Shown here: positions 1 to 48,985 of the stretch, one piece after another
How the letters are laid out: every line of letters starts with the position of its first letter
Numbering within the stretch: the stretch's first letter is position 1
Source of the DNA: Cenococcum geophilum
Taxonomy: Eukaryota
Length of the DNA: 64,000 nt
Assembly: GCA_050273025.1 (NCBI GenBank)
Contig: CP158635.1
Coordinates: forward strand, 16,182,001 to 16,246,000
Direction of reading: 5' to 3'
Translations under genes and position numbers: made by a program
The notes under the pieces: generated by a model
Told to the model about the DNA's origin: nothing
The model's input: only the letters and a program-made list of their open reading frames with translations
The model's database searches: none

Positions 1-587
1 AGCTAAGCTTAGTTATTTAAAGAAGTATACTATAGGGTATAATACTCTATCTTTATTATATTAAGATAGGATGCCTCTAGTAATATAGCTAGATAAATTA
101 GCTTCTATAACACTTATTTAGTTTAGGTTAAAGTATTAGAGTATAGGTATAGTAGTAAATATAACTTTTAAATAAGTAAAGGCCTTATATTCCTTATTAA
201 AGATAAAGGCTTTATTCTTTTAGGTTTAAGCTATAAGGGGTAAAACTAAGGCGGGAAAGTTATTAATAAGCTATTAGTAGAAATTAGCAAATCCTATAAA
301 AGCTCTTACATCCTTAATATTTTTAGGCTATTAAGAATTTATAATTACTTTAACCTTCTTTAGGTCTATTTATATACTATTTATAGAAATAAGGAGTCTA
401 AGGTATTGAACTTCCGTTTTATAAATTTTATATTTATCTATATCTAATTATAGACTAGCTCCGTATAGTGCTTATAAAATAAGATTAATATATTTCCGGT
501 ATTTAGTTAGGTTATTACTATATATTAAGATATTGTTAATATAAGTAGTATAGAAGATGTCTAGGTAGGGATATAGGGTATTACTTA
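1..587 (-). mobile_element. RIP-degraded Ty3/Gypsy reverse transcriptase (C-terminal half), truncated by the window edge
   Basis: Minus strand reads LYPYLDIFYTTYINNILIYS (RIP-altered YIDD box), then EVQYL and DVRAFIGFANFY, which are typical fungal Gypsy RT/connector motifs. Many TAA/TAG stops and TpA excess. Confidence 0.85.
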
Positions 588-3500: not shown

Positions 3501-6230
3501 GATTAGTTAGCGCAGAAGGTATACTATCTGCTTCTTAACATTCCCCTTTATAAAGGCTCTAGGAATATAGTAACTTTAGACTACTACTAAGAGGATGATT
3601 GAAGCGCTATATATAAGCTTAATAATGGGCAACTAAGAGGGTGCAGACTGTCTGACTATAAGAAGTATAAGCGCCGCCTAAATGGGGTAGAGGACGTTAC
3701 TTTCCTCAATTTTCTACTCTATTTTAATTACTCTACTTATAAGCGTCGGCTAAGAGCAAGGCCTTAAGTTATATTATACTTTCCGCGATATAACGGCGAT
3801 CGTTCTTATCCGCAGTATCCTAAGTTCTACCGCGTAAAGCTTATTCTTTATTACCCGTAGAGGGAGTATAAGGAAGTAGCTACTTATACTAATAGATTTA
3901 AGGCTCCTGATTATATAACTTCCTATTAGGCTTATATTAACTCTTATTAGCATCTACCCAACTACTTCTGTAATTGGAAACTAGAGGAAGGTCGCAAAAC
4001 TGCTAATAATATTAATAAGTTTAAGGGCGATTTCGTAGACGACTTAGAGCTATACCAGTCCTTTAAGGCCCTATATACCTACGTTTAAAATACTAACGGA
4101 GTTAAAATTAAGGATCCTAACAGGCTTAGTAATAGGGAGCTTAATTATAACTACGACTAGAGTACGCATTAGGGTACGTACCCGCAGCTTAATAAGAGGA
4201 CTTATTGGCAGGAAGTACGGCTATAGCCTCTACCGTAGAGCCGCCTATCCTAAATAGCAACTCCGTCCTCCTTATAACTAGGTCAGCGTTATATCTATAA
4301 TATCGTAGTTAATTACTACAGGCAGATCTAATTAGGCCTTATCCCCCCCCTACTACGGATTAATATTAATGGAGAGGCGGGAACCGGCGGGTTATATCTT
4401 ATTACTATTCTATCTACTACGCTTTATAATATAGCCATGTCTAATAGTAAGCCGTCGCCATTAGTTCGAGCCGCCCCTACTAGAGTAGCTGCCTTTAATA
4501 TTAACGGTAGAACTACGTACAAACTATTAAGGTTGCCAGTAAATCGCCCCTTTAAGGAATTGCCTACTGCCAGTCTTACGCCTCTATAACAAGCTTTTAA
4601 GGATATTCACTATCTTATCCTTAACGAGAAATCTATAATCGGGCAAGTATATCTAGCCTAAATTAATCGCCGCCTCGGTTAGATCTACCCTACGCGTAAT
4701 AACAACTACTTTAGAGGCTTAAACATCTTACTAGTAGGCGATTTCCATCAGCTTCCCCCTATAGGTTAGGCGGCCTTATACAGCAATCTATCCGCTAGGC
4801 CGTTAGAGCTCGCCAGCTATAGAAAGGGAGCCTATAAAGCAATTAACCGAACTACTGTCCTAGATTAAGTTATATAGCAAGGCGGTAATAACGCTAAGAG
4901 CTTTATATTTAGGACCGCCCTTACAAAGCTACGTAGTGATTCTATAAGTAATTTAACCTAGAAGCTTCTTTTAACTAGGCGTAAGTAGGGCCTATTTACC
5001 GGTAAGGTTACGGGCTTTAACAACGCAATTCGGCTATATAGTATACGCGCTACTATAGGTAAGTATAACACTATTTAGCTTCGCAACCTTTTACAGCTAG
5101 TGGTAGCTATTAAGTTAGTTAACACTAGTATAGGTGCACGGAAAGTTACTCCTAATTAGTGCGATACTATAGAGAAACTAGCCCTATATATTGGCGCGAA
5201 AGTAATACTAATATATAATATCTGGGTTAAACTAGGCTTAGTAAACGGTACTACTGGTATAATTAAAGATATCGTATAGAAGGGACACGCAGATATTAAA
5301 AAGGATTAGCCTTAGTCACTACTAATTGCAGTAGATAGGTATAACGGACCTACCCTATTCACTCGGCAGGATGGTAAAAAAGTCGTCCCTATATTTTCCG
5401 TGCTTCATAAGTAGGAGGGTATAAGAGGCTCTTGCTTACGGCGTCAATTTTTAATTACTCTAGCTTTTACTCTTACTATATATAAAAGCCAGGGCCTAAT
5501 ACTTAACTAGGTAGTTCTAGATATTAAAGAAAAGGATAAGACAGCTAGGCTAACCTATATAGCAATCTTACGAGTTAAGAAGCTTTTAGGGCTTATATTT
5601 AAACGTAGGTTTAATATAAAACGGTTTCAGTTATCTATAAATAAGACTAAAGAGGTATAATAAGAAGATTTTACACGGAGGCAGTAGCAACTACTTATAA
5701 ACAACTTTTCCTAATTAGGAAATTATATACTAGCTTAAAGGTAAGCGGAGAATGCAGCATTTGTCTTAGTTTCCTAACTTTTAAATAGCTTAACCGCGAA
5801 ATCCAATTTTCTAAATTTTAACCCCCCTATCCGTCCTACCTTCTTACCACTTTTAGAGCTGTTAGATATACATACAATAGTATATAGGGAGAATTAGCAG
5901 TACTACCAGATCAATATTACTACTGTCTATAGCGTTAATCAATTTTTAAAAAATTTCAATTTTTTTTAAAGGGCGGAAATGTTGCTTATATAAGAAGTCA
6001 CGTGACCTCTAAGAATACTTAGGACCCTATATTAGCAGCCACGACTTCTCTACACTATAGTTAAGATTTTATATATACCGCACCTGGAGCTACTTATAAT
6101 AACTATTACCTATAAATCTGCCAATTTACAAATCAAAAATTAGACGTGGTTAGAGCTGTTAGTAGGGGTCATTAATCGCGCTCCCCATGACAAAATTTTA
6201 GATTTTAGTGATCCAAACTAACGAATTAAA
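588..6230 (+). mobile_element. Helitron-like rolling-circle transposon (Helentron/HLE2-type), RIP-inactivated; termini approximate
   Basis: Contains a degraded Rep-helicase ORF. The left edge coincides with the break in the Gypsy RT and carries a GACCCGA...TCGGGTC inverted repeat (~590-623). The right non-coding end (~6060-6210) is homologous to 7920-8060. Confidence 0.85.
800..5714 (+). pseudogene. Helitron RepHel transposase (Zn knuckle, DUF6570-like, HUH/Y2 Rep, PIF1 helicase) with many RIP stops
   Basis: MADPTVIECSKCH start; LTAVEELLIARV..YTGHVCCF; DGRFGRHPLF, GTRPYW; degraded RYEWQxRGSGHxH (~2857-2905); YIGKYCSK (~3357-3380); Walker A region GEAGTG (~4371); APTxVAAFNINGRT; LILNEKS (DEKS); GDFHQLPP; GLVNGTTG; YKSQGL (HKSQG); LTYIAILRV. 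Confidence 0.92.
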
Positions 6231-6239
6231 TTAAAAGTT

Positions 6240-6690
6240 TGGAACGTCTAAATAAGGTTCTGCTAAAACGCTAGCTAGACCCTAACCTAGACCCTTCCTG
6301 ACCTATTAAATTCTAAAAATAACAACCTTTACCGAATTAAAAATTAACCTTATCCTTAACAAGCTATCTAATTAGATTTAATGGTTCTTTATTATCTAAG
6401 ACATAGCTAAAACTAACAAGGTATAGTAGTATATCGACCTATCTAAGAAAAAAGACGATCTTCTAAAGCTAGAACTACTAAATCGGCCTACACCAAGGGA
6501 CATACTACTTACGGCTATATTAATAGCAAAGCTAGACCTAAACTAGCTTACTGCCTATAACTAGCTCTACGCTAAATATAAGGACGATCTACGCGTATAC
6601 TAAAAGCAAAAACAGGCTATAAATAATATTAACAACTACATCGTTCGCACCACATCGGTAGCCTACCTTTTACTTATTAACAGCCTTAGT
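6240..6690 (+). mobile_element. Probable Ty1/Copia gag fragment, RIP-degraded
   Basis: Reads YAKYKDDLRVY*KQKQAINNINNYIVRTTS, resembling fungal Copia gag N-termini as I recall them. No catalytic motif is present. Confidence 0.45.
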
Positions 6691-6699
6691 AGTTAGTAC

Positions 6700-8065
6700 A
6701 TCAAATATTTAAGGCGTCTCTACCACTATAGTAGTCACTGCAGTGATAGAGATACCCTATATTTTGGTAAGTAATCAAGCCCATCTTATACGAGAATCTC
6801 ATGCTATTAGTACTTACCAAATTACGTACTCGCAGGGCCTCCTCCCGTCTATAAATACTCCCTCCTCTATACCTTCCTCTCTTCTTCTTTCTTCTTCCTT
6901 ATAAGAGCTAGAGGTGCTCTAATACCCCTCCCCAGTCCCTACTAAGGGATTTATTAGTTAATATAGCAATATAGATAGTATCGGACAACAAGACAGGCGA
7001 GAGAGGATAGGAAGGACGGAGGAGCCTCTGGTATGTGTTAGTCAAGCAACATTACTAGCTATATTATAGCTGCCTAATCTCCTATACTTGCAGGCCTCCT
7101 CCCGTCTATAAATACTCCCTCCTTTATACCTTTCTCTCTTCTTTTTTTCTTCCTTATAAGAGCTAGAGGTGCTCTAATACTCTTCCCTAGTCCCTACTGA
7201 GGGATCTATTAGTTAACGTAGCGATATAAATAGTATCTGACGAGGAGACGGGTAAGAGAGGAGATAGGAAGGATAGAGGGGCGTCTAGTAGGTGTTAGTC
7301 GAGTAACATTAATGTCTATATTATGGCTGCCTAATCTCCTATACTCGCAGGCCTCCTCCCATCTATAAATACTCCCTCCTCTATACCTTCCTTTCTTCTT
7401 TTCTTCTTCCTTATAAGAGCTAGAGGTGCTCTAATACTCCTCCCTAGTCCCCACTAAGGGATCTATTAGTCGACGTAGTGATATAAACAGCATCTAACGA
7501 GGAGACGGGTAAGAGAGGAGATAGGAAGGACGGAGGGGCGTCTGGTAGGTGTTAGTCGAGCAATGTTAATATCTATATTATGGCTGCCTAATCTCCCGTT
7601 CATAGGCCTCCTTCCGTCTATAAATACTCCCTCCTTTATACCTTCCTCTCTTCTTCTTTCTTCTTCCTTATAAGAGCTAGAGGCGCTCTAATACCCCTCC
7701 CTAGTCTCCACTAAGGGATCTATTAGTTAATATAGCGATATAGATAGTATCGGACAAAGAGACGGGTAAGAGAGGAGATAGGAAGGACAGAGGAACCTCC
7801 GGTAGGTGTTAGTCGAGCAATATTAACGGCGGTTTTTATTACCCAAAAATTACGTCATGTGACGACATTTAGGAACGCAAATATGTACCCCCGTCCCATA
7901 CTTACACCACTACTAAATATTCTAGATTTTACACTTGGAGCTGCTTATAATAGGCATTCCTAGGAGATCTGCTGGTTTAAAGCTCTATAATTAAACGTTG
8001 TTAACGTTTTATATAGGGGTTATCAATTAAGCTTCCGGGACACGATTTTTAAAGTTTAATACCAC
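6700..8065 (+). mobile_element. Putative non-autonomous Helitron-like element containing the tandem array
   Basis: Left hairpin TCTCTACCACTATAGT/ACTGCAGTGATAGAGA (6716-6752). The right end (7920-8060) aligns with the 3' region of the autonomous element (6060-6210). Confidence 0.5.
6831..7826. repeat. Tandem array of 4 x ~257-bp units
   Basis: Units start at ~6831, 7089, 7346 and 7601. Each has GGCCTCCTCCCGTCTATAAATACTCCCTCC, a CT-rich tract, TATAAGAGCTAGAGG and a GA-rich tract. Copies differ mostly by transitions. Confidence 0.95.
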
Positions 8066-8070
8066 ACCAA

Positions 8071-9112
8071 TATTACGACCTTCTTGCAGTGGCCAAGCCA
8101 CCCCCAATCTCCTTCCCCTCCTCCCCCCTCCCATTACTCGGCGCCGAGCTATTACGTCGTCACCAAGCCATCGCGTTGTCGTACGTCCGAACTGGGTGGG
8201 TAATGACGTTACTTAATTATGTCAGACGTCTCTGTATACAGTTATATCTCTTCCTACACGCGTATTTAATCGAGTTGGGGTAGTAAACTTACTTTAATTC
8301 CAGCTATGCGGCGATTTAGTTATTAGGTATTAAAAATATTTAGTATATAAAGCTTTAAATTGGAATCATAATCTACTATATCAGATCCTACGTAGAGGGC
8401 TCTGTATTAAGCTCTGCAGTCCAAATATATACTAGATTTGTGACCAATATAATCCTTAAGCCTAGCTTAAGTAGGGCGCCTCGGTTACTATAGTAGATCC
8501 TTACCTAGCAGTGACCAAGGCGCCTTAATCTTACTACTACTTCTAAATTAAGCAAAAGCTCTATATAGGGGGGTCCCAGGGGGTCTCCCCCTGGAAAACC
8601 TTATCTCTATATATATTAATTAAAGTCTATATAATAAAGCTCTAAAATTGATTGGCTTATTACTTATAAACTCGGGTTAAAATTTACGTTGGGGGATTAA
8701 CGTTCCGCATGTTATTATTAAAACGAGCTTAGGGCGTTTATAAGGCTAAATAGTATTACTAAGTATTTAAATAATCTATACTGGGTATAGAATATAGTAA
8801 GCTATTTATCTCCCTTTATAATATAAAGGCGGTTAAACGCGAAGATAATATTAAGCTTATAAGGGATCTTTTGGCCCCTTACTGGCTGCATCGCCTAGGA
8901 GCTCTTAGGGGTAGCCAAGGCCTAGCCGAAGGCTAGGCTTGGCACCTCCTTATAAGCTCCTCGGGCTTGCAGCCCTTCCCTCCTCATCGGTTCGTCTCCG
9001 TACGAGGCTATTGCCTACCCTTATTACCATATCGTCCTCTTCCATCGACTCTCCTTGTAACTCATGCTCGGCTTACCTACTCCCTATCGTATACCCTAGC
9101 AATGTGCCTTAC
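8071..9112. mobile_element. Unclassified RIP-affected transposon/LTR-like remnants
   Basis: TATTACGACC (possibly TGTTACG LTR start after RIP) at 8071; hairpins at ~8474-8525 and ~8915-8942; AT-rich with TpA excess; no recognisable protein motif. Confidence 0.35.
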
Positions 9113-10340
9113 AAAGCTTTATATAGTAGCGAGCTTTACTTAATCGGTTTAGCGTCTTTTATATTAACGGGATTGGATACTAGTTCTTAATAGTAACGGC
9201 ATTAAAAGCTTAGTAGTCTATGTAAAAGCGTAAACTACTGCTAAGTTTCTTAATAAAGATTACTAGTACGGCTATAGGCGAAGAGCTTGCTCTAATAAAT
9301 CATTTACTTAGGTTTTCGTCTAAATACCTTTATAGTACTTAGAGTTCGTTTTAGAACATTCTATATAGAGACCTAAATCTAGGCTACTTTCCTTCTTTAA
9401 ATATAATCTTATAGTCGTATAGTTGGTATTTTAGTAGCTTATTAGCTTCCTTTTATAAGAATGCATCTAGGCGTTTATAATACTCTACTAGGACCTTTAC
9501 AGCAGGGTTAGTATACTTCCTTAATGCTAAAGCCCTCTTAATATTAGCTATTATAACGGCGAAGATCGTATATTTAGGTTTTTTAGTAAGTTAAGCTAGT
9601 GGAGTAGCTCTAATTATGTGGATATTTAGGGTGTTAAGCTTACTTAAATTGTCTATAGTTTCTTATATAGTTTCTTATTTGGCTTTAGGTTCTTTAAGCA
9701 TCCTTTTTATAGTAAAGTACTAGTTCTTCTGATACTTTTATATACTAAGCTTAAGCTTCTACTTAGGTTGGGGCGGCGTAATAGTTAGGGTTGTTTTATA
9801 TAGTTTAGTAGGATTTCTAAGCCTCTAGTAGACGTCGGCGGAAATTTTAGACTAGTAGATCCTGGTAGCTTTTTTAGGTTTTAGTTTAGAGTCTAAATAG
9901 TAAGTTATAATGCACTTCTACTTATAATAAGAGGTAGTAAATAAAAGCTAAAGGTTGTTTTAATTAATAGTTACCTTATATAGTTTTATCTAGGGTTATC
10001 TAAGGATTACTAGGTAACTTAGGGTAGTTATAAAGAGCTTAATCAATTCTTTATAGTTTAGGTATTGGAGTCTTAGGGCCGCTATATAAGTAATACGGCC
10101 TAAGACAGTGCGTTTACTATTAAATCCAAATACGTTAATATGCCGGTTAAGGGGTATTAAGGTAAAACCATTATCCTATATAAAGATCTTATTAATAAAT
10201 CCTATGCCGCTAGCTTTTATATTAATTAGGACTCGAGCATTAGCCTATTAACCTTTCTACTAAAGACGGTAGTTAACGGTTATACTATATGTAAGGGCGC
10301 GAAGAGACTTCGGGGAAGATTCGAAGGAACGATATAAATT
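9113..10340 (-). mobile_element. Ty3/Gypsy pol: aspartic protease and RT N-terminal half, RIP-degraded
   Basis: VLINIKASGIGFIN (degraded LIDTGAS protease motif, ~10195-10235); YLDENLSK*FIRASSSP..VIFIKK..LRFYIDY*AFNAVTIKN*YPIPLI..LNRLSKARYYIKL. Confidence 0.9.
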
Positions 10341-10359
10341 CTATCTAAATCTAAGGGTA

Positions 10360-10633
10360 TATAGTTCTCGCTAAGAACAAGACGTTGCGTAAAGAAGAGA
10401 AAGGAATAATAAGAGAGTCATATATTAAATAGTCAGGGGTCTTGGTGGTCGATGCGTGCGCACGTGCGTACGCGGTCTTCGACTGACTTCGGTAGAATTC
10501 GGTGGATCTAGCAGAACTTGGCAGAAGTCGATCAAGCTGGCAGAATTCGGTAGAATTTGGTCAAAGCGTCGGAATTCATCTGTCGAGTGTTTCACCGAGA
10601 CATTCCTACTGTAACTGGGCTAGTCCCGTTACA
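10360..10633 (-). mobile_element. LTR-like segment (probable solo LTR of a related family) between gag and pol
   Basis: Ends TGTAACTGGGCTAGTCCCGTTACA (TG start on the minus strand) and has ~10-bp GGCAGAACTT-type repeats like the LTR at 11815-12134. TSD not confirmed. Confidence 0.55.
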
Positions 10634-10639
10634 CTATAA

Positions 10640-11760
10640 TCCTAAGAGCTAGGGTCTATAATATCTAATACATTTAATAAAATCCTATAATACTAGTATA
10701 GCTGTCTTAAAAAGCGACTTAACTCTAAAATATACCTTTAAGTAGTAAGTAGAAAGGGGTTCCTATAGAATATTGGTTATAGCTTTATCCTTATAAGTAG
10801 TGCTTACTAAATATAGGGCTAGAACTAGATAAAAATCGTAAACGGTAACCAGAAGATTAATGCGATAAACGGCCGCTAGTATTAACCGTTTATAAATTGT
10901 ATTAGGGTATAAGAATAGAGTAGTATTTTAAAATATAAGCCTTGCTTTTATATTTAAAATAAAGGCCTAGCTTAATATATTAGTAGGGTATACTCTAGGG
11001 TTCTAGAGTTAATGTCTATAGCATTAGGGTACTTAAGCTAAGAAGATAACTTAATTTTAGTTTAGGGCTTAGGGATTTAATAAGGCTATTAATTAGTGCG
11101 GAGTTATTCTAGCCTATTTCCCTTATATAATAGTTAAATTTGGAGAAGTATACTAGGAAACTTTTTCTTTCTTAAGCTATATAGTTTATCTTCCTTTAAG
11201 CGGTGGCTTAGCGGTTTAGGTTACTATATATAGCTTTAAGAAGTCTAACTAGGCTTTATACTAAGTTTAGCTAATAAAGTTTAATAAAGTTAGCTACCTC
11301 TCCTCCTAATTAACTTAAGGCGTAGTAAAGTTAGTTAGCTTTAATTAGGTAGTAGTTAGTATTACTAATTAGCTTGGTTTTAAGCCGGCTTAAAAATAAC
11401 TAAAGCTTTTATTATTTACTAGTAAATATAAGGGGGTCTAATAGTTTTTTAGATTATTATATTATAGTAGTTAGTTTAGGGTAAATAACCATTACTGGTT
11501 TAGGGCTTATGTTCCATATATAGGCCTCTAGGGATAGTATTTAGTCTTAAAACCCTAGCGTAGGTATCTTAAGGATGTGGATTTCTTCTTAGAGGGCTTT
11601 AATTAATTATTAGTATTAGGCCTTTTATTCTGCAAGGGTGTTTATAAAGGACGTCTATAAACCTACTATCTGCTCTTTAAGCACGGTAAGTATATCAGCT
11701 GCTGTTATAGGAGCTTTAGGTACGTTCTGCATTCTAATAGTAGTATAGGTAGTTAACGTA
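10640..11760 (-). mobile_element. Ty3/Gypsy gag, RIP-degraded
   Basis: KKLLDPLIFTSK..LFLSRLKTKLISNTNYY..LYYALS*LGGEVA, matching the fungal Gypsy gag pattern KxPDPxxFxG...YAxSRLxGxA. Confidence 0.8.
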
Positions 11761-11814
11761 ACGTAATATTATGGAATAAGTATAAGCGACAATAATATAT
11801 AGCGAGGTAGATAT

Positions 11815-12134
11815 TATTAAACTATATATATAAACTATATAATAAGGTTAAGACATTACCTAAGGAAAGAAAGTAAAAAAAAGGGAAGAAAGGGTATATA
11901 TTGTTAACTTGGTTGCTTAGTTAATATATACACGAAGCAGAATAGGATTCGGGTAGTGGTCCTAGCAGAACTTAGCAGGACTTGGTGGAACTTGGCGGAA
12001 TATGGCAGAATACGGTAGATTGCCATTAGATTGCCATAGATTGCGGCAAATTGCGGTCTCGTGGTCGGTCTCTAATTTCTAAGTCGGTGGGAACAGGTGG
12101 ACGTGTATAAGGTGTCACGGGGTGTCCCGTGACA
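11815..12134 (-). mobile_element. 5' LTR of the Gypsy element
   Basis: Directly upstream of gag. The minus strand starts TGTCACGGG and has internal ~10-bp repeats and a TATA-like tract. The inner boundary is approximate. Confidence 0.65.
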
Positions 12135-15798: not shown

Positions 15799-16147
15799 AC
15801 GGGGCAGACGCCCTTCCTGCTAGTATGCTAGCGGAATAATACAGCTGAACCATTTTGCAAGGGCTCGCTTATTTTGAAAATATACTAGCAGGGAGGGCGT
15901 CAGGCAGGGGCAAATAAGTCGTGGCACACTTTTTTTGGCCTATACGAAGAACAACTAAGATTTAACAACTACACTTTAAATAAAATCTTCTAAAAATTCA
16001 TATATAAAGCCCATTAATAACTTTATACCTAGCATAAATTTTTTTAAATTCTTTCTCTTACCAGCTTTGTAGAATTTTACTTTAAAGAAGCTGCTTAGTA
16101 AGAAAGTGTGCCACGACTTATTTACCCATGCCTGGCGTCTGCCCCGT
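15799..16147. mobile_element. Small inverted-repeat element (28-bp arms) whose right arm is split by a nested MITE
   Basis: Left arm ACGGGGCAGACGCCCTTCCTGCTAGTAT (15799-15826). The right arm, rebuilt from 15882-15900 plus 16139-16147, matches 27/28. Confidence 0.75.
15901..16134. mobile_element. 234-bp MITE with 32-bp TIRs and AT-rich core
   Basis: CAGGCAGGGGCAAATAAGTCGTGGCACACTTT versus AAAGTGTGCCACGACTTATTTACCCATGCCTG (30/32). Flanked by a GCGT direct repeat. Confidence 0.85.
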
Positions 16148-37703: not shown

Positions 37704-38148
37704 ATGCCATCTTCTTGCAAGGACATCCGTACGCGCCTCTCCAACTCCATCATCACTACTGTCTTCTTGCTGACAGCTCGCCGAGCGTACAGGCGCCGCC
37801 TTGGCTGCGTGCCTTCAAAATTCTGATTGTATCATGGTGGAGCGCAACAGTCCTAGTGATTGCCTTCGGCCACCCCTCAACTCAACTCTACCTACGAGGT
37901 GTCAGCAGTTACAAAAGGGCTACGGAGAATGCAAGCGTGGGATGGTCGATATGCGCAAAAGATTTCGCGGCAATCGACCTGTAGCAACGAGCACTGAGTT
38001 GGAGGGGTCGGGAGGTGGAGACGCCAACGCAGGGACCATCGAAGAGAAGGGTTATATGCTTTATGCCGGAAAACCGGCAGCTGGTATTAGAGCTACCAGC
38101 GGGAATGAAGGAGAGCAAGGGGAATACGGCGTTGACAAAAAAGCATGA
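37704..38148 (+). CDS. PET191: Cytochrome c oxidase assembly factor Pet191/COA5 (twin-Cx9C type)
   Basis: Exon 1 37704-37728 (MPSSCKDI), intron 37729-37792 (GTACGC..CTGAC..TACAG), exon 2 RAALAACLQNSDCIMVERNSPSDCL...CQQLQKGYGECKRGMVDMRKRFRGN. Confidence 0.93.
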
Positions 38149-39612
38149 GATATGACAGGAGGGGAGGAGAGACTGGGCTCCAACAGAGCTGGAGAGGAAT
38201 GACGGAAAATATTCCTCGGATAGGTTGGTTTCCATTGTTGAAGAAGCAGAGAAGCGTGGAGCAAACCCTGGATTGTTGAACGAAAGACCCGCATGGGGAA
38301 GGTAAAAATGGGCCGAACAGGGCATTTGTGTGATTTCCAAGGCGCCGGTGATACAGCTGCAGGAGCAAATATGTGCCCGAGCTTGTGTGGAGCCGAAGGT
38401 GTGGTGGGGGGCGGGGCATTATCATACGGCCGTTTTTTGATATTGGATGCATGGATGTGATTGTGCAACGGACTTCGCCGCTTTCTCATACGTCAGGCAT
38501 ATTGTACATAATTATCTACGTAAATACGCAGCTCTAAATCTATGCATCTATTTGCACACACAAATATTCGTCTGTGCGCTCCTGAGCACTGCTAGCGTTG
38601 CTGCCTACGGGCGCTGAAGTCAAAATTTAGTTTGAGACCATCGCCCTCCGCATCGTCCATCTTACCCCTTTTTTGACAATGAAGGACAACAGCGGTGTAG
38701 GGTTCTAAATCCAAGCCACGCAGGCTCCGTTGGGCAGTGGAAAGGTGCGCAAAGGGCAAAGGGCAAAGGTAGCCAACAATGGAGGGCGAGGTGACGTTTG
38801 AATAAAGCCGATTCGCAGGGCGCACATCAGCTGCAAGCCCAAGAGCCGCTCCGGTGAGGCTGGCCGCCCTAAAGTTTTGCTTGCAAATTGGGTTTTCTCA
38901 AGGCAGTTTTTCCCGGCTGCACCGCAGTGCGTAAAGCCACAGCCGCCGGTTGGCTTACTTGTTTCACAAGGACGACAGCTCGCAAAAGTACTGGTAATTC
39001 ATCATTTAGTAATTCTAACGTATTATTTGCGCTACAAAGTGCTAAAAATGTGAACACCCAACCCATAGCCAAGGTAGGAGACCCAAGTCTCACGGCAGAT
39101 CCAAAACAGCACATGCCGCCGCCGTACTTCGGGTAAAGAAAGGTGCCTCCACATGATAACGTTGAAGAAAAAAAAGAGCAGACAAAGGTAGGGTAACTGA
39201 GCAGCCTTCGCCGAAAGGAAACAACACAGAGTAACGAGCAATACGGAATATAACCTTAGAAGCCGGAAAAAAATTGGCATATTGGAGAAGAAGAAAGGGG
39301 CGGCGGCATAGGTGAAGAATAAGTAGAAGATCAGTAATGAAGCCCCAGAACAAATTTCCTATTAATTAAGATGTGTCTCCAAGAAAGTTTTTCAGGCCCC
39401 TATACTTGTCTTCTGCGAGGGACTCTGTTCGTAATAGTGTTTCGACGGTGAGGCAGGTTGTAAGGGGCAGCATGAAGATCCATGAAAATGCTCTAATTAA
39501 GTGGGCTAGTCTGTAGTATATGTTAGTTATCATCCTTGGAACTTTATTGGGATGGGCTATGAAACGAACCGGAATGAGCATGTTATTTTCTAGACTCGAT
39601 AGCGCAGCTGCA

Positions 39613-39798
39613 TTACAACCCAGAGGCTCCCTCAACTGCTTCTGCATTGCATGTTGAACAGCCCTGATGGCCGCAGTTGATGCATGCTGCGTACAATGCT
39701 AGCAGCATCGGTCCGTAGTGACAGGAGCAGCAGTAGAAGTACGCTGAATCAGGACCGGAGGTATGGGGGCCGGAAGAGGGATGGAGTGCTGGAATCAT
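39613..39798 (-). CDS. Small Cys/His-motif protein, single domain (61 aa); probably an internally deleted paralog
   Basis: FYCCSCHYGPMLLALYAACINCGHQGCSTC; paralogous to the genes at 40793 and 43048. Confidence 0.65.
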   Translation of the reverse strand: MIPALHPSSGPHTSGPDSAYFYCCSCHYGPMLLALYAACINCGHQGCSTCNAEAVEGASGL

Positions 39799-40792
39799 GA
39801 TTGATTTTTGGATTTATGAGACTTGAGATGTTGAGGAAGGTTAGTGGCTCGGAAATATATGAATTGAATAGTGCGCTTGAAACTACACCGGCAGTGCGGC
39901 CTGGATACTTGTACTTGGATAACTACGGCATGGCAGTGCAAAAGCTAGGCATAAAATTATAGCCCAAGGAAATTAAAAAGCCTTAAAGCTACTGAGGCCG
40001 CCTTCCGGGTGCTCATCAGGTGAAAGAGGGCGGAGGGCGAAGGGCGAATGGGGCGATGCCAGGATACACTGCAATGCGTAAAGCCAGAGCCGTTAGTCGT
40101 CTTACGTGTTTCACTTAATTGCCCTTACAAGAAAGACTGCTCGCCAAAGTGCTAATAGAATCACCATTTGGTAATCTAACGTATGATTTGTGGGTAAAGT
40201 GCTCGGAGTGGTAGGATAATGATTTCGATTCGTTACTTGCACTAAGACAAGCAAATCTATCGCAATACATAACCAGGGCGAGACGCAAGTCCCACAGCAA
40301 CATCTAGAACAGCAAACGTGGCCGCCATAAATGCTCGCTGTAAATGCTGGGAGTGATGCCAAAGTATCTCCACAGAAAACGGTTGAAAGGAAGAGTAACA
40401 AAGACCAAGCAAATGAACCTTCATCACTAAAGATCGACAGTACAAGACGGAGAACCATATAAAACAGAAATCTAATAGCTAAAGGGTATGTGCTGCATGA
40501 AAGGAAAAGAGAGGCCTGGAGAAGAGGTGAAGAATAGGTAGAAGACCAGTAAGGAAACGCGAGAGCAAATGCCTTGGAAATAGAGGTGTGCCACCCAGAA
40601 CAGCCATTCAAGCCCTGTAGTTGTCTTCGAGAAATTCTGATTGTGAGAGTTTTCGGACGGTGAGGCAGGGTGTAAGACTGGCATGGAGGATCTGTGAATT
40701 GACCTGTGGTCCTTGTAAGCCAACCAGCTTTACAGCTGCGTTAATATGGATAGCAACAGACCTGAAGCCATATGAATTGATCCATTGCTAGA

Positions 40793-41263
40793 TTACTTCC
40801 TAGCATTCTCATCGCAGTGGATACATTTCCGGTGGTCGCACATACAGCACGCTGGGTTATTGGCAGTAGTCTTTGGGCCATCTCCGCAGCCGCAGCAATA
40901 CCAGTAGGTCTCTCCATCAGTTAGTGCCTGGTTGCTGAAAGTTTCGTGGATGGTGTTTGTCTGGGAAGGGTTGTCTCGGCAAAATGTTGTCAAAGATGCG
41001 GTCGAAGACGGTTGTATTATTGCGTCGTCTGTAGTCGAGGGAGCACCCATGAGGATCGCGGTGGGTTCTGGCTCGGAAGCCGTTGGAAGGGAGATACTCT
41101 CCATCGCTTCCGCAACACAATAAGAACAGCCGTAATGACCGCAGTTGATGCAGGATGGGTGCAATGCCAATGACATTGGTCCGAACTTACAGCAACAGCA
41201 GTAGAAGGTCTGTGGAGGATCACAGGTCTTGGGGTTAAAGGTTGGATTCTGCAAGGAAACCAT
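40793..41263 (-). CDS. 156-aa protein with two CCxCxxGP-x8-CxxCxHxxCxxC putative zinc-binding domains
   Basis: Intronless ORF with the motif at both ends; TATATAAATA ~140 bp upstream (41402-41411); no signal peptide. Confidence 0.85.
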   Translation of the reverse strand: MVSLQNPTFNPKTCDPPQTFYCCCCKFGPMSLALHPSCINCGHYGCSYCVAEAMESISLPTASEPEPTAILMGAPSTTDDAIIQPSSTASLTTFCRDNPSQTNTIHETFSNQALTDGETYWYCCGCGDGPKTTANNPACCMCDHRKCIHCDENARK

Positions 41264-43047
41264 GACTGCGGTTTTGAATTTAATGGAACTTGAAATGCTT
41301 GACGAAGATGTTGTGGGAAGTCAAGAATATTTAAAGTGATTAATAGGCAAGCTTGGCAGTATGGCTGAGACAATGATGACAGGATTTGCTCTGGTTACTA
41401 GTATTTATATAGTATGAGATGGCTGTGCAAAAGTCAGACATAAATGCCTGGGCTGCGCCTAGGGTAGCTGAAGGAAATTATCTGCCTTTCTAAGACCACC
41501 GAGGCCGCCTTTTGTGTTCTAACGGTCGAAGAGAGGGCGAAGGGCGAATGGGGCGCTCTTTGAGGATCAGCGCGAGCATAGAGGCCATGTAAGGGCAAAA
41601 ACTACCCAGGAGCGAATGTGCTGCAGTAATGGAGGTGAAGAAAGCTGACCGCTGAGGGCGTGCTCCAAGGGGCGTGAGAACGCCTAAGGGATTAGGTGAT
41701 CGAGGACCATAGTCGACGGGGGAGCAGACAGACGATGTTGAAGGCACCAACGGTTGCATAGCGAACTGTTGTCGAGGGCATTCCCCTACTCGCCGGGCAC
41801 TAGCTTATGCCCAGAGCTGAGACCTAGTCGATCAGGGGAAGCGCAACAGAAGCGCAAGTATGAGTAACTCGATGTCATACTTTGGGTGAATTAAGGCAGT
41901 GCACTGCTTCGCTTGGCAGCAGATATTTATCCGTCGTTAAGTGAGGCCTGGGCCGCCGGTAAGCCGTTGCTAGGCGGGGACGGAGGACACCGCAGGCAGG
42001 TAAGGCTTCTCCGAAGTACCTTCGCCGGGGAGGGACAGAGAACTAAGACATGACTAGGAAAAGGACGTCCGGTGGGCGAATCTGAACAGCGGTGGAATTA
42101 GCACGGTTGGAAGAAGGAAGACTTATATCAAGGGACAGTCATGTGCTCAAAGTCTTTGCCTTTTGTACCTTAGCCCTGACGTTTGAACAGGGCCGATTCG
42201 CAGGATGTATATCAGCTGCGGGCGCAAGAGCCGCGCCAGCGAGGCTGGCCAGCCCTGAATTTCGCGTGTAAATTGAATTTTTGCAAGGCAGTGTTTTCCG
42301 GCTGCATTGCAGTGCGTGACGCCACAGCCGTCAGCCGGCTTATATGTTTCACTTTAATGCCTTTAAGGAGGACGGTACCTCGCTAAAAAGCTGATAGAAT
42401 GCACCGCTTGATAATTCCAACGTATGATTTGTGCCTGAAGTGTTACAGAATGAAAGGATATCGACCCCGATGCATTACATGCACTGCCTACCCATCGGAA
42501 TCGATAACCAAGAGACGCGAATCTCACAGCAAAATCCAGATTGGCATAATGCGCCGCCCGTAAATGCTTGCTGAAATGCTGGGAGTAATGGTAGAGTACC
42601 TCCATAGAACAGAGTTGAAGAAAAGACAAGACAAAGGCTAAGAAGACAAGCCGCCATCCTAAAGAACAACAACGCAAAACGGAGATCTCTATGAATAAAA
42701 CTACTGCAGCTGAAGGGTATGCGCCATGTAAGAAAAAAAAGAGAGGGCTGGGGGGGGGGGGAGAAGGTGAAGAGTAGGTGGAAGACCAGTAGTGAATCCC
42801 AAGAGCAACTGCCTGGTAAATAAAGATGCGCCGTCTAGAAAAGTCTTTCAGGGCCCTATATTTGTCTTCTGCGAGGGGCTCTGTTCGTAACAGTGTTTAG
42901 AAGCTGAGGCAGGTTGTAATAGCGGCAAGGAAGATCTGTGGATTGACCTGCGGATCATATAAGCAAATCGGCCTTACAGCTGCGTTAATATGGACCGCAA
43001 CAAACCTAAAACCACATGAATTGATTTTTCATTTTTTCAATTGAAGG

Positions 43048-43518
43048 TCATTTGCCACCCTCCACAGAACACATCTCACATCTCCAGTGCCCACACTCGC
43101 AGCACCCCGCGTTGTTGGCGGTACCCATTGGACCATCCCCACAACTACAGCAATACCAAGTGAAATGCTCGCTATCGTTCGCCTCTTCATCGAAGATAAG
43201 CCCGTGTATATTGGTACCTTCAAGGCGAGTTGTGGCGAAAGCTGTGGGAGAAGGACGTTGAAATGTCAAGTTGACATCGGAGGAGACGTCTGTAAAATCG
43301 ACTCTCTCTACCGTCGTGGCACTTGCGCCTATTTCTCGGCCAGAAATTCCCTCCGTTGCGTCAGATTCGCAACTTGAACAGCCGGTATGGCCGCAATTAA
43401 TGCACTTGGGGCACATATTTATTGACTGTGGCCCAAATCCACAGCCGCAGCAGTAGTAATCGGTCGGCCCGCCGAGGGTATTGAAGGAGGGTGTAGACGC
43501 ACTGTCGGTGAGAGACAT
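43048..43518 (-). CDS. 156-aa protein with two CCxCxxGP-x8-CxxCxHxxCxxC putative zinc-binding domains
   Basis: Start taken at the ATG at 43518 (CAAAATGTC context), which gives the same length as the paralog; TATATATA at ~43623-43630. Confidence 0.85.
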   Translation of the reverse strand: MSLTDSASTPSFNTLGGPTDYYCCGCGFGPQSINMCPKCINCGHTGCSSCESDATEGISGREIGASATTVERVDFTDVSSDVNLTFQRPSPTAFATTRLEGTNIHGLIFDEEANDSEHFTWYCCSCGDGPMGTANNAGCCECGHWRCEMCSVEGGK

Positions 43519-46197
43519 TTTGAAGTGATGGACGAGGGATCGTGTTGTTGAAGAATATGTTTGTGGTTTGTCAGACTGTCGGATTAAAAAGAATTGACTC
43601 TCTCGTAGTGGAGGCGAGTGAGTATATATACACTCATATTGCCTAGGACGGCAGTGCACGGCGGGCAAAAGTACTTTGCGCAGCCACAGGGAAAGCTGAA
43701 GACGCCTTCCTGAGGCCATACCCGACCGCCCTGACTGCCAACTAGCTGAAAGAGGGCGAAGGGCGACGGGGCGATGTCGGGGCCGGCGATATCACAGAAC
43801 CATCCATGCAAGAGCTAAATGGTTAGCAGCGAATTGGCACCGTCAGGGCGAATAAGAGGACCGTGCTGAGGGCGTGATCATAAAGGGACGAGAGGGCCTG
43901 AGGGATTGGCTCTCGTGAGGACCCATTGTTGACAAGGTATCAGGCCAACAGATTGGAAAGGCACCAACGGTGGCACAGAAAACCATTGTTAAGGACATCA
44001 CCCCTAATCGTTGGGCACCCGTCGACACCTGGAGCTGAGACCTAGGCCAGTCAGGAGAAGCACAACAGATATGCAAGTATGAGTGACTCGATATGATACT
44101 ATGTGGTTAGGTGAGGCCTCGGCCACCGGCGAGCCGTTGTTGGCCGGGACGGAGGAGGACATTGCAGCAGGAAGGCTGACCCGAAGTTTTGCCAAGAGGG
44201 ATTGAAAGCTAAGACACAACTGGGAAGAGGAAGGAAGACTTACATAAAGGACAGTCATATGCTCAGTCTCTGCCTTTTGTGCCTCAGCGCCTAAGCGGTA
44301 TGGGGGGTCTATACGGGTGAGAGACCTTTATCCTCTTGAGGAATATTCGATACGGTACCTTTCATACTAAAGGCTTGTCCCAAAGTCAGTAACAAATTTC
44401 AGGTAAGGAAGCGTTGTTTTAATAATGCGGGACGAGATGCTCAGCTGCCCATTTATGACGAAGCATGTTGCCGATAGCCTGAGTAATGCTGCTAACTAGA
44501 TGGATATTCAGACTGGCGTCCAGTCCACTGATTGGCTGAGATGGTAAAGCTAAGATTGGCTAGTATCAAAAAGTTACAATACGAGAAATACGTAAAATAA
44601 TCATTCAGATGACGTATGATTGATTCCAATTTTCGCAAACAAAATACAAAGAGACTATAGTGACAGATATCTGAGACATAGACCCTAGCTTTGGCCTTCT
44701 ACGGCGACTTGATGAAGGATCGAAGTCTAATTAATGCTGAGACAAAAGTGTTAGGGGGCTCGTTGGGCGGCGGCTCGTTGGGCGGGCTCTGCGCTTGGAG
44801 GAACGGCCCCTGGTGAACCTTAGGTCAATATAGTGCAGCGATTCGCTACGACAGGTGAGATATGGCGGCCAGTAAGCCTCGCAAAGCTCACATTAGAGGC
44901 CTTTGTGCCTACAATGACTTTTTGTGCTCAACTACGGGTTGAGATTGATATTGTTCTTAGAAGCACTGCGGCCAGGCGTAATCCCTGACGGGCAAGTGGG
45001 TTTGTTATCCTCAGTCTGCCTGCCCTGATTCCGGTCTGCTTGTGATGTGTTCCCGGCCCTTGCAGAGCCACAACAGGAAGCCTGGGCGTGTTTATGAGGA
45101 AAAAGAAGTGGAGATTCAGTCGAGTAGAGTACAAGGCAGACAGAAGAGCTCGGGCTCAGCCTCTGGCCTAGGGCTTGCCATCTTCCTGGCAGAATACTTT
45201 CCGGTAGCATTAGTGCTAGTTTCTTCCTGTATGGACAAAACGTACCAAAGTGCTCTGATAAGCACCCGACTCTGTTGGCCCTCCGAGTTTGGCGGTCGCC
45301 CCGCCGACGGCCCTTCCGGCGACCGTGCCGGCTTCTCGCGCCCTCAGGGTTGAGATCTGCCCGCACAGCGACGAGCCAGCCAAGGGGGGAGAGTGCACGG
45401 TGAAGTGGCCGGTCGGCTGCTGGAGAGGGGAGGCGCAGCTCGTTCTTATAATCGGGTTATGGTTAGAAAGGCTAGATTTAACTCTGCCAACACACCATGA
45501 AGCAGTCCGCCCTGCATTTGAGGCAGAGAGAGAGGATGCCAGTTAATGGTGTTTCGATCCGAGAAGTGTGGACAATCTGATCAGGCTGTGATCCAAAAAG
45601 ACGGGCGGCATTGACGTGTAACGCAAGGCTAGGATTTAGGGCGTTTGCCTCATTTCCGAGAGGATTTGCCTTTTCAATGAGGGTATGGAAAAAGAGCCTC
45701 AGGAGGGCCGCGTGACGCAGGCTTAGAACGAAGGACAGAAAAGCCCTGTCTCCTCAGGTGCCCGCCGGTGAAGAGTGAGGTATTAAGGAATCAGGGCGAG
45801 AGCGAGGCTTAAAGCCGGGGCGTCGAGGTGAGGGCGCTGGGCGCTGGGGAGCTTACTTGGCGTTACAGTGTGACGCGAATTTGCTAAGCGGCAGGCAATT
45901 GGAGGCGCTGACGCAGCAACTGGTCTTCCCTATTCTTCTGCCAAACCCTGTCAGTCTTCTGGAGAACATTGGCATTTTCGAAACATGAAGAGACGATGAA
46001 GGAACGATGAATTGGCGATGGACTGACGATGAAGACAAGTTGCCGGGAGACCCCGCATCGATCAGATAACTTAATCGAGCTTGGTCCAATCAGCATATGA
46101 TCCCCATCACGTGATAACACGTGACTTATCTTTCCCGCGAATGAGGCTGAGCTCCGCAAAGGACATGGCCCTGTCAGCAACATCCACTTTTCCATCT

Positions 46198-48834: not shown

Positions 48835-48985
48835 CAGACTTGATAAGAAGCAAGCTGTCAAGCCCGCATGGACAAGTATATGGTAAGTGCACCGGTGCAA
48901 GGCACTTCTAGAGAGGTCCGTGATGATGTGCAAGGTGCTCGTAGTAGTCAAAGCGGGCTTGACAGCTTGCTTGTTACCAAGTCTG
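48835..48985. mobile_element. MITE-like inverted repeat (33-bp arms, 85-bp spacer)
   Basis: CAGACTTGATAAGAAGCAAGCTGTCAAGCCCGC versus GCGGGCTTGACAGCTTGCTTGTTACCAAGTCTG (31/33). Confidence 0.75.

Follow-up and report, generated by a model that had tools for sequence, protein, structure and literature searches.

Old cores and younger flanks in a tandem array of small zinc-module genes of Cenococcum geophilum

Introduction

How can the DNA surrounding tandem genes be more alike than the genes themselves? The window analysed here, a stretch of 64,000 nucleotides whose host is Cenococcum geophilum or its species complex, raises this question at a tandem array with a unit of ~2.1 kb, lying between the genes for a lipase and a DHHC palmitoyltransferase. 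A sequence-only reading had offered two explanations, exchange or conversion that leaves shared flanks around variable cores, or conservation of the flanks for RNA structure or regulation. A literature search returned no publication on this zinc-module family or the locus.

Results

Layout of the array

The array consists of three minus-strand genes side by side, c1, c2 and c3, encoding a small zinc-binding protein. The c3 protein carries two CCxC-GP-CxxCxHxxCxxC zinc modules (fingers 1 and 2) joined by a low-complexity linker, and c2 is 38–39% identical to it in protein sequence. The features are as follows, in window positions.

43048..43518, minus strand: c3 CDS, 156 aa, occupying the array's first slot; spliced RNA contigs cover it
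40793..41263, minus strand: c2 CDS, 156 aa, c3-like layout, with RNA contigs
39613..39798, minus strand: c1 CDS, 61 aa, first finger only; transcription persists
42177..43047, minus strand: c3 3′ flank, 3′UTR and read-through, common to the units
40060..40792, minus strand: c2 3′ flank, lacking the unit's final ~125 bp at the c2/c1 junction
38792..39612, minus strand: c1 3′ flank, holding a remnant of the final codons of the full-length gene
43770..44290, minus strand: c3 distal 5′ flank, within the transcribed leader
41560..42176, minus strand: c2 distal 5′ flank, the duplicated second half of the leader; intron donor lost, unspliced
43519..43751, minus strand: c3 proximal promoter, TATA-like at -112, in the divergent core
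41264..41532, minus strand: c2 proximal promoter, TATA-like at -148, in the divergent core
39799..40032, minus strand: c1 proximal promoter; RNA 5′ ends near 39826–39859 despite the missing distal flank

The truncation of c1 is an internal deletion of ~290 bp near 39611–39623; three related contigs (L017, L018 and L019) carry a full-length c1. An assembly artefact was ruled out as the source of this arrangement, because a DNA contig from another sample (X5) matches 39454–40318 without difference and thus crosses both the c2/c1 junction and the c1 deletion unchanged.

Divergence of c2 and c3 in cores and flanks

Comparison of c2 with c3 bore out the similarity that had been noted by eye around the two genes. 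A gap-free block of 158 columns (40624–40781 and 42868–43025), beginning 11 and 22 nt past the stops, is 77.2% identical; the whole 3′ flank reaches 75.7% over 717 columns (K2P 0.30, 21 gap openings; BLAST E 2.5e-99), and the distal upstream segment 75.6% over 505 columns. The coding sequences are far less alike, at 58.6% against a shuffled baseline of 55.6%. Poor identity in the linker is partly usual for a disordered linker. Silent sites at identical residues frequently differ, as had also been claimed: 15/23 four-fold sites (p = 4e-5 against the flank rate) and 14/31 two-fold sites (p = 1e-4), or 7/12 (p = 0.012) and 10/24 (p = 0.003), respectively, in the fingers only. Silent sites are thus near saturation, whereas flank divergence is p ~0.24, and we conclude that the cores are old and the flanks young; flank divergence of the duplicates below silent divergence is also what is described for a divergence peak.

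The division into coding and non-coding sequence held only in part. The flanks are indeed more alike than the CDS, but the ~250-bp proximal promoter is non-coding and yet matches the linker in divergence (c2/c3 p 0.52), so the division lies between core and distal flank. Divergence between c2 and c3 ramps gradually rather than abruptly. Each unit consists of a core of old lineage, comprising the proximal promoter, the small double zinc-module gene and often the beginning of the 3′UTR, together with much younger distal flanks; several very old core lineages exist.

Transcription and short shared sequences

RNA contigs revealed that the flanks are transcribed, with introns and further elements at these positions.

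42948..43005, minus strand: c3 3′UTR intron, 58 nt, GT-AG, 42 nt past the stop, containing a 21-mer at 42974–42994
40704..40761, minus strand: c2 3′UTR intron, 58 nt, 31 nt past the stop, containing the 21-mer at 40730–40750
39511..39569, minus strand: c1 3′UTR intron, 59 nt, equivalent position, only ~55% like the c2/c3 intron
43752..43766, minus strand: 15-mer TCGCCCTTCGCCCTC close to the core's 5′ edge, a candidate upstream element
44244..45380, minus strand: single-copy upstream part of the long leader, with an intron at 45197–45245; 5′ end judged from the extent of an RNA contig

The perfect 21-mer shared by the c2 and c3 flanks is present as described; it lies within the 58-nt intron, spliced in both RNA-contig runs (2/2), and 0.5–0.9 such exact runs are expected by chance at 75.7% identity. 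We rejected it as a motif, since it is intronic, at chance level, altered in L019A, and missing from c1 and from the B and X core types. The 3′UTR intron itself, 15–43 nt after the stop, is spliced in all three copies of the window, and it is also predicted in the other core types for which sequence exists, B and X included; between c1 alleles it differs at 0–2 of 73 aligned sites. At other loci the intron pattern occurs in 1/8 modules against a background of 6% (191/3000), so the result does not show a family-wide 3′UTR intron; the pattern also overlooked the RNA-proven c2 and c3 introns and that of L019A and is therefore insensitive. The 15-mer is exact in all three copies (also at 41533–41547 and 40033–40047) and occurs nowhere else in the genome, and variants of it are found in related contigs.

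The long leader measures ~1.6 kb when spliced and contains 17 upstream ATGs. The c3 leader intron (44042–44243) is spliced, and the internal copies have lost the leader splice sites. A protein encoded in the leader was rejected, as only short ORFs occur there and run X21 carries indels of 1, 2 and 11 bases. Contig depths in X11 were 1742, 43 and 56 for the copies, depth being a poor measure of expression. A short c3 isoform may accompany the long-leader transcript, contigs being unable to reveal start sites. Reads of X21 fail to map on the c2 and c3 cores, and runs X22–X24 contain next to no words of the locus.

Core types and mosaic units in related haplotypes

Among 17 metagenome loci, five are haplotypes of the array locus, one (L026) matches an ectopic fragment, and 11 are other family members or weak matches. 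These five related contigs, all from metagenome assemblies, which can be chimeric, differ from the window in core type and copy number and contain mosaic units. The first slot alone holds four core types in four haplotypes (window c3, L016, L019A and L020X), and the nine located full-length proteins fall into six clusters at 60% identity. The closest match of the X type in the present genome is the array itself. Identity to the related contigs is 94–100% outside the array and 59–98% inside; highly divergent alternatives thus occupy a syntenic site with a narrow footprint, as at het-type loci.

Distances along the units shift from one partner to another. L019A lies at 0.07–0.11 from c3 in the 3′ flank, at 0.20 from c2 in the linker, and at 0.34–0.57 from all others in the promoter and finger 1; L020X lies at 0.10 from L019A in the distal leader and at 0.41–0.67 from all in the core. 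Windows between c2 and L019A run from 0.43 through 0.12–0.16 to 0.40. Distal 5′ distances for c1, which lacks that segment, are misalignments and were ignored. Max-chi analysis placed breakpoints at p = 0.001 in five of six triplets and none in the remaining one (p = 0.45), the window-only trio c1/c2/c3 is heterogeneous (p = 2e-6), these permutation tests ignoring rate variation, and trees of separate segments disagree. The breakpoints fall at varied places (5′ flank, finger 1, linker end and 3′ flank), although in several pairs the 5′ edge of the core is fairly sharp near the shared 15-mer. The notion of exchange or conversion with shared flanks around variable cores is thus upheld, since units are mosaic, cores have been replaced and copy number varies; fixed, enzyme-made cassette boundaries are not supported, because breakpoints differ among haplotypes and the units lack bracketing inverted repeats, the only pairs being 18 short ones that look like chance.

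Module shuffling is also visible in independent protein records. Finger 2 of c3 is 97% identical to record P0007, and its finger 1 and linker are nearest P0004/P0005; c2 and P0159 share 59/71 linker residues and only 9/21 in finger 1. The contrast between finger and linker was significant in 10/25 pairs, picked for similar linkers, which favours this result.

Divergence, selection and RIP

The flanks are not a dispersed transposon: genome-wide matches all lie within the array (3/3 and 4/4). They diverge from related contigs by 3–18% (13 comparisons, introns apart), against 1–5% for outside non-coding DNA (8 comparisons) and 2.2% and 3.3% at four-fold sites of the lipase (two exon-1 rows left out) and DHHC genes. 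The array flanks, diverging faster than background, are young rather than constrained. Conservation for structure or regulation found no support, given this faster divergence, many indels, large deletions and no covariation or Rfam signal. Consensus folds were weak, at -42 kcal/mol for 620 columns and -43 kcal/mol for 859 columns, with covariation terms of +3.8 and -2.5, respectively, in a test of low power owing to few, related sequences, and an Rfam search of the flanks gave no match at E ≤ 1. Minus-strand ORFs of 128–209 codons in the 3′ flanks were rejected as a hidden protein, with no Pfam match and an alignment full of frameshifting indels.

Among c1 alleles, finger 2 shows amino-acid variation at 11/30 codons and silent-only variation at one, against four and six in finger 1. 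Omega is 1.8 in finger 2 and 0.64 in the remaining gene; finger 2, chosen after looking, changes faster (p = 0.005), and its omega is not significantly above 1 (p = 0.11; 0.60 with ligand codons). Between core types, dN/dS is below 1 where computable. The c1 alleles differ at 11–17% of four-fold sites, against 2–3% in neighbouring genes.

CpA transitions were elevated in array flanks (104/441) relative to outside (43/1066), with CpT at 44/477 and 53/1089, in comparisons that all share the window sequence and in which CpG changes are raised too. CpA changes in the CDS (5/67, 8/65, 10/42 and 10/50) did not exceed those at other C sites. Co-resident units reach at most 66–72% over their best 400 columns in all three multi-unit haplotypes.

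The zinc-module family

From their sequences, the array proteins appear to be uncharacterised ascomycete proteins of a double zinc-ribbon-like type, with variable and shuffled finger residues. The family comprises 443 representative relatives at E ≤ 0.001; its sole Glonium homologue (P0024) forms a long branch in an open fork of the tree. A structure model has confident fingers and a low-confidence linker (pTM 0.31); Foldseek gave no match at E ≤ 0.001, and the model fingers weakly match NZF/RanBP2 fingers (Z 2.1–2.8), with VIA at Z 3.5 at most. The nearest Atlas clusters, a lead, are ascomycete 'RanBP2-type' (0.93) and PF26652 (0.84, 0.77). RanBP2/NZF zinc ribbons and Pfam Zn_ribbon_double (PF26652) share with the array module a W/Y-x-C-x2-C knuckle followed by further CxxC pairs. 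The RanBP2 zinc-finger pattern includes an Asn; the array module lacks it and, unlike RanBP2/NZF, has eight ligands (CCxC-GP-x7/8-CxxCxHxxCxxC).

Pfam detected only the lipase and DHHC domains among the array proteins, flank ORFs and two neighbours, with no HET, NACHT, HeLo or similar domain; known het/NLR domains are usual, not obligatory, at het loci. The 112 aligned members gave no RanBP2/NZF/PF26652-type match at E ≤ 0.01, PF26652 possibly postdating the library copy, and no Wtf-related family. Longer fused forms numbered 0 of 7999 candidates, which is weak evidence, and some longer module-bearing proteins do appear; 13 of these gave nothing above the Pfam cut-off and thus do not establish a link to NLR-type proteins.

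Discussion

Old cores, younger flanks, mosaic units, unlike cores in one slot and varying copy number are observed at this locus. They are probably explained by unequal crossover and gene conversion around diversity-selected old cores, giving arrays of unlike cores. Exchange through the homologous flanks would set different old cores side by side and replace them, and would likewise swap blocks of promoter-finger 1, linker and finger 2, while selection for difference, balancing or diversifying and probably acting on non-ligand finger residues, would prevent homogenisation of the cores. RIP would affect the shared flanks to a light degree and would eliminate duplicates whose cores are nearly identical, which may be why arrays of unlike cores persist.

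The same recombination history could have run without selection for difference, with old subfunctionalised paralogues too divergent to convert, neutral losses, moves and splicing, and RIP alone removing near-identical duplicates. The non-significant omega, the broken c1 of the window haplotype, the unequal X11 contig depths of the copies and the RIP-like footprint in the flanks are compatible with it, and RIP is described as widespread in C. geophilum (PMC12910237). We regard it as unlikely, because the disordered linker stays alike between fingers that differ (c2/L019A, c2/P0159), four core types share one slot, and finger 2 of c1 outpaces its gene. Local hypermutation of the cores, by RIP or another mutator acting on the CDS, might account for the four-fold excess among c1 alleles, but CpA sites in the CDS are not preferred targets, reading frames and zinc ligands are intact, and the non-coding proximal promoter is equally divergent; it is the explanation to which we give the least credence.

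Purifying selection on RNA structure or regulatory sequence, keeping the flanks alike while proteins drift or diversify, would fit flanks that are transcribed and spliced, the recurring 3′UTR intron with its near invariance between c1 alleles, and the exact 15-mer. It would explain a few short elements, but not 0.5–0.85 kb of similarity in flanks that outpace their non-coding neighbours, fold weakly without Rfam matches, and are often interrupted by indels. In addition, c1 has no distal flank left, and the internal copies lack the leader splice sites. For most of the flank sequence this reading is largely refuted and, overall, it is very unlikely. Swapping of cores by a programmed or site-specific cassette mechanism, or their carriage on a mobile element, would agree with the fairly sharp 5′ core edge and with the AT-rich, RIP-type DNA adjoining the array in L018 and L020. 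The scattered breakpoints, gradual c2/c3 divergence, confinement of the flanks to the array, lack of bracketing or terminal inverted repeats, and failure to notice a recombinase-like ORF among the ORFs adjoining the array make it more improbable still.

The favoured reading, exchange around diversity-selected cores, resembles the divergence peak described for duplicated genes under gene conversion (Teshima and Innan 2008), in which, as in opsin exon 5, a selected core is highly divergent and its flanks are homogenised by conversion (PMC3924837). Exchange between copies is seen here as mosaic tracts in DNA and as protein modules. Unlike that model, the array has many core types, variable copy number, near-saturated cores of ~0.7 kb including the promoter, flanks only 70–90% alike, and RIP acting on shared parts. 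The hetA–D loci of Aspergillus fumigatus, as presented in PMC11138114, similarly place divergent alternatives at one syntenic position, with a narrow balancing-selection footprint and divergence within a few hundred bases around the CDS; that account gives two or three alleles for hetA, C and D, and a tested incompatibility phenotype. The present locus, known from sequence alone, differs in being tandemly arrayed, in having six or more types with shuffled modules, and in showing no known het domain. The wtf clusters of Schizosaccharomyces pombe, in the description of PMC5478263, likewise show shared upstream sequence before divergent genes, ectopic conversion, cluster neighbours that are always very distinct, and proposed long and short transcripts, as proposed for the array. 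They belong to a dispersed, LTR-flanked spore-killer family of 25 members (PMC5478263), whereas the array occupies a single locus, its small zinc-module proteins are unrelated to Wtf, and no in-frame coding exon was found in its long leader.

The locus is best read as showing the divergence-peak signature known from het loci and wtf clusters, here carried by an unstudied family. The array would most likely act as a module for recognition or specificity in an interaction under frequency dependence, either self/non-self or with a virus or selfish element as target, and a self/non-self or conflict function is plausible. A new fungal self/non-self or defence locus, with identity residing in two small zinc modules, specificities made by block shuffling among tandem ancient alleles, RIP filtering for unlike cores and a uATG-rich leader tuning the first copy, is a speculative possibility that we rate as rather doubtful.

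In fungi, genes of recognition or conflict have often been found behind such a footprint, and mapping of short reads is reported to miss such loci (PMC11138114), as it did here for the X21 reads on the c2 and c3 cores. The array pinpoints specific residues and swappable modules in a family of several hundred relatives, and it is a compact test case for tandem-family growth in a strongly RIP-affected genome, duplication normally being penalised in such genomes according to PMC12543289. If the locus is a zinc-module recognition locus, this ascomycete zinc-module family, widespread and unstudied, would gain its first function, and a dominant ectomycorrhizal fungus its first recognition locus.

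Organization of the array and its products

In the source genome (178 Mb in 7 contigs), the array comprises three minus-strand genes, with genes for a lipase and a DHHC palmitoyltransferase as its neighbours:

43048–43518, minus strand: c3 CDS, 156 aa, two modules and a linker
40793–41263, minus strand: c2 CDS, 156 aa, two modules and a linker
39613–39798, minus strand: c1 CDS, about 290 bp lost, first module alone kept

The c1 gene is whole in three related contigs. A DNA contig from X5, a sequencing run of another sample, crosses the c2/c1 junction with zero differences, so misassembly does not account for the arrangement.

Both c2 and c3 carry the module pattern CCxC-xx-GP-x7/8-CxxCxHxxCxxC twice per protein, with a low-complexity linker, and the invariance of the Cys/His pattern suggests that these proteins bind zinc. 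The family is wide, with 443 representatives at E ≤ 0.001; Penicillium, Paecilomyces and Coccidioides each have named proteins belonging to it, and the Atlas contains clusters of it from ascomycetes. A named C. geophilum protein at NCBI is 99% identical to c2, and a Glonium stellatum homologue is more distant; on this basis the source is taken to be C. geophilum or a member of its species complex. Pfam gave no relevant match among 112 family members, and literature searches, at the level of search results, turned up no publication about the family or the locus. In the predicted structure both fingers are confident and the linker has low confidence; fold searches with this model returned weak matches to NZF/RanBP2 and ribosomal zinc ribbons and nothing stronger. 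No signal peptide was apparent in the array protein sequence. The public c2 gene model P0160 (40793–40850) removes the stop and the last part of finger 2 as intron, and looks wrong because RNA contigs show a 58-nt intron after the stop and no other there.

Further zinc-module copies lie elsewhere in the genome (L007, L008, L009, L010, L038 and L041), standalone or on unrelated longer proteins; none shares the array flanks. The window also contains AT-rich, strongly RIP-type DNA at 1–12000 (TpA/ApT 1.69), in which a 257-bp tandem repeat occupies 6836–7825, MITE-like small inverted-repeat elements at 15807–16144 (45-nt arms) and 48835–48985 (44-nt arms), and a dispersed repeat family of 45–54 nt at four sites (20791, 50279, 53880 and 60314).

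Similarity of flanks and divergence of cores

The sequence-only reading held that the flanks of the unit are more alike than its genes, and comparison of c2 with c3 agreed. The 158 columns just past the stops align gap-free at 77.2% identity, matching the three-quarters judged by eye, and the 3' flank (75.7%, 717 columns) and distal upstream sequence (75.6%, 505 columns) align over about the 0.7–0.85 kb and 0.5 kb proposed, whereas the CDS reached 58.6% against a shuffled baseline of 55.6%. Silent sites in the CDS, also said to differ often even in conserved Cys/Gly codons, exceeded the flank rate at identical residues: 15/23 four-fold sites (p = 4e-5) and 14/31 two-fold third positions (p = 1e-4) differed, and in the fingers alone 7/12 (p = 0.012) and 10/24 (p = 0.003), respectively. 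The similarity of non-coding DNA does not extend to the proximal ~250 bp of promoter, where divergence matches that of the linker (c2/c3 p-distance 0.52). A perfect 21-mer is indeed common to c2 and c3, but it is unremarkable: 0.5–0.9 such runs are expected by chance, and it sits within the 3'UTR intron. Close to the 5' edge of the core, a 15-mer is exact in c1, c2 and c3 and found nowhere else in the genome. Genome-wide searches with flank sequences placed 3/3 and 4/4 matches in the array and none elsewhere, which argues against dispersed transposon DNA.

Exchange between units

Among 17 metagenome loci examined, five (L016–L020) are haplotypes of the array locus, with 94–100% identity to the window outside the array and 59–98% inside it, the minimum falling over the c2 and c3 genes. 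Units in these haplotypes, which come from metagenome contigs that can be chimeric, switch partners along their length (distances in parentheses). L019A resembles c2 in its distal leader (0.12) and again in its linker (0.20), and c3 in its 3' flank (0.07–0.11); its promoter and finger 1 resemble those of no other unit (0.34–0.57). L020B is c2-like through the end of finger 1 (0.11–0.17), then unlike all, with a c1-like far 3' end (0.08–0.11). The core of L020X differs from every other (0.41–0.67), with a distal leader 0.10 from L019A; a search of this genome with its type X protein found nothing closer than the array's own copies.

Max-chi breakpoint tests gave p = 0.001 in 5/6 triplets and p = 0.45 in one, and the relationships within the c1/c2/c3 trio of the window vary along the unit (p = 2e-6); these tests ignore rate variation. 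Segment trees of units disagree. Homologous protein records from other sources show the same pattern: c3 shares 97% identity with P0007 in finger 2 but is closest to P0004/P0005 in finger 1 and the linker, and P0157 combines finger 1 of the c2 type with finger 2 of the P0008 type. The first slot holds four types in four haplotypes (c3, L016, L019A and L020X). Copy number varies as well: L019 has two units vs three in the window between the same neighbour genes. In X21, a run from a divergent strain, 80 reads link the single-copy leader directly to a c2-type distal flank. Nine full-length proteins placed at the locus form 6 clusters at 60% identity; adding 14 unlocated records, which may derive from other loci or species, gives 8 clusters plus the Glonium protein. 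The partner switches, breakpoints, replaced cores and copy-number change support the proposal of exchange or conversion around variable cores.

A fragment of the array also occurs ectopically. On another contig, an unrelated site (L011:1502–1653, G000 contig C3) carries an insertion of 154 bp from the 5' end of c2 (41136–41289) at 91% identity, and this insertion is common to strains, since L026 has the same site. An X5 DNA contig joining array pieces (39908; 40019/42119) on opposite strands and continuing into unlike sequence is perhaps another such fragment.

Flank age, constraint and RIP

The alternative proposal, that RNA structure or regulation holds the flanks alike, predicts constraint. 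Non-coding DNA outside the array showed 1–5% differences from related contigs (8 comparisons), and four-fold sites differed by 2.2% in the lipase gene (leaving out two rows read in the wrong frame) and 3.3% in the DHHC gene. Array flanks differed from their nearest counterparts by 3–18% in 13 comparisons, the majority exceeding 6%, and contained many indels; since this tops the outside non-coding divergence, constraint on the flanks is not unusual. Consensus folding was weak and Rfam returned no match at E ≤ 1, which further disfavors this alternative. Short exceptions are the c1 3'UTR intron (0–2 of 73 sites differ between alleles), the intron position 15–43 nt after the stop, which is also predicted for core types B and X despite their great divergence, and the 15-mer. 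The inverted conservation therefore reflects old cores within younger flanks; that old cores sit in recombining flanks is highly probable, whatever maintains the cores.

RIP is reported to be extensive in C. geophilum (PMC12910237) and to act as a brake on gene duplication (PMC12543289). C-to-T changes at CpA numbered 104/441 in array flanks vs 43/1066 outside, and at CpT 44/477 vs 53/1089; the CpA share was higher in flanks (odds ratio 2.2, p = 2e-4), in comparisons that are not independent and with CpG raised too. No CpA excess was found in the array CDS, and thus RIP did not cause the core divergence. RIP requires about 80% identity between duplicates. Co-resident units were just 66–72% identical in their best 400 columns in 3/3 multi-unit haplotypes, below this requirement. 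RIP may filter the array so that unlike cores persist together.

Selection on the fingers

In three full-length c1 alleles, amino-acid variation occurred in 11/30 codons of finger 2, with silent-only variation in 1, compared with 4 and 6 codons in finger 1 and 18 and 11 in the remaining 84 codons. Omega at non-ligand codons of finger 2, which was picked after inspection, was 1.8 vs 0.64 elsewhere (p = 0.005); its excess over 1 was not significant in the three alleles (p = 0.11). Non-ligand finger residues were less alike than the linker in 10/25 pairs at p < 0.05, among pairs picked for similar linkers and so biased toward this result. Between core types, dN/dS was below 1. In c2/L019A, c2/P0158 and c2/P0159, divergent fingers flank a shared disordered linker, a pattern that drift alone would hardly produce. 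The evidence of selection for difference at the fingers is suggestive.

Transcription and the leader

Four of 24 sequencing runs were compared with the window, and they show that the array flanks are transcribed. RNA contigs from runs X6 and X11 showed a spliced 58–59-nt GT-AG intron shortly 3' of all three stops and two introns upstream of c3 (44042–44243 and 45197–45245). Provided that the contig represents a single transcript, which contigs cannot prove, c3 has a ~1.6-kb leader containing 17 upstream ATGs. Such a long spliced leader with upstream ATGs resembles long undecoded transcript isoforms; c3 also has a proximal TATA-like box in the leader region (43519–45380). X21 raw reads over the leader and c1 lie nearly all in one orientation, consistent with minus-strand RNA, and fail to align at 85% to the core of either c2 or c3. 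The distal flank of c1 is gone, yet RNA 5' ends lie near 39826–39859, suggesting that the proximal promoter suffices. The leader intron donor is kept in 4/4 first-slot units and lost in 3/4 internal units having that segment; in internal units, the distal flank looks like a duplicate of one half of the leader that is decaying. One X6 RNA contig (40149–44041) crosses both c3 and c2 and has the 3'UTR intron of each removed, which suggests either read-through or transcripts that overlap. High-depth RNA contig cover at 37800–38919, upstream of the lipase gene, suggests a long leader there likewise.

Relation to known systems

The array works like duplicates showing a divergence peak under gene conversion (PMC3924837), and resembles Aspergillus het genes in its narrow divergence footprint (PMC11138114) and wtf clusters in combining unlike neighbours with shared upstream sequence (PMC5478263). 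Pfam found no domain known from het systems in the array proteins, flank ORFs or two neighbour genes, and no Wtf family among the 112 family members. We consider it unlikely that the array would be a recognition or defence system. Recombination around diversity-selected cores is, on balance, the probable explanation of the array. Its evolutionary signature is already known; the novelty lies in finding it in a RIP-affected fungus, in a tandem array that has multiple core types and shuffles modules, and whose zinc-module family is unstudied.
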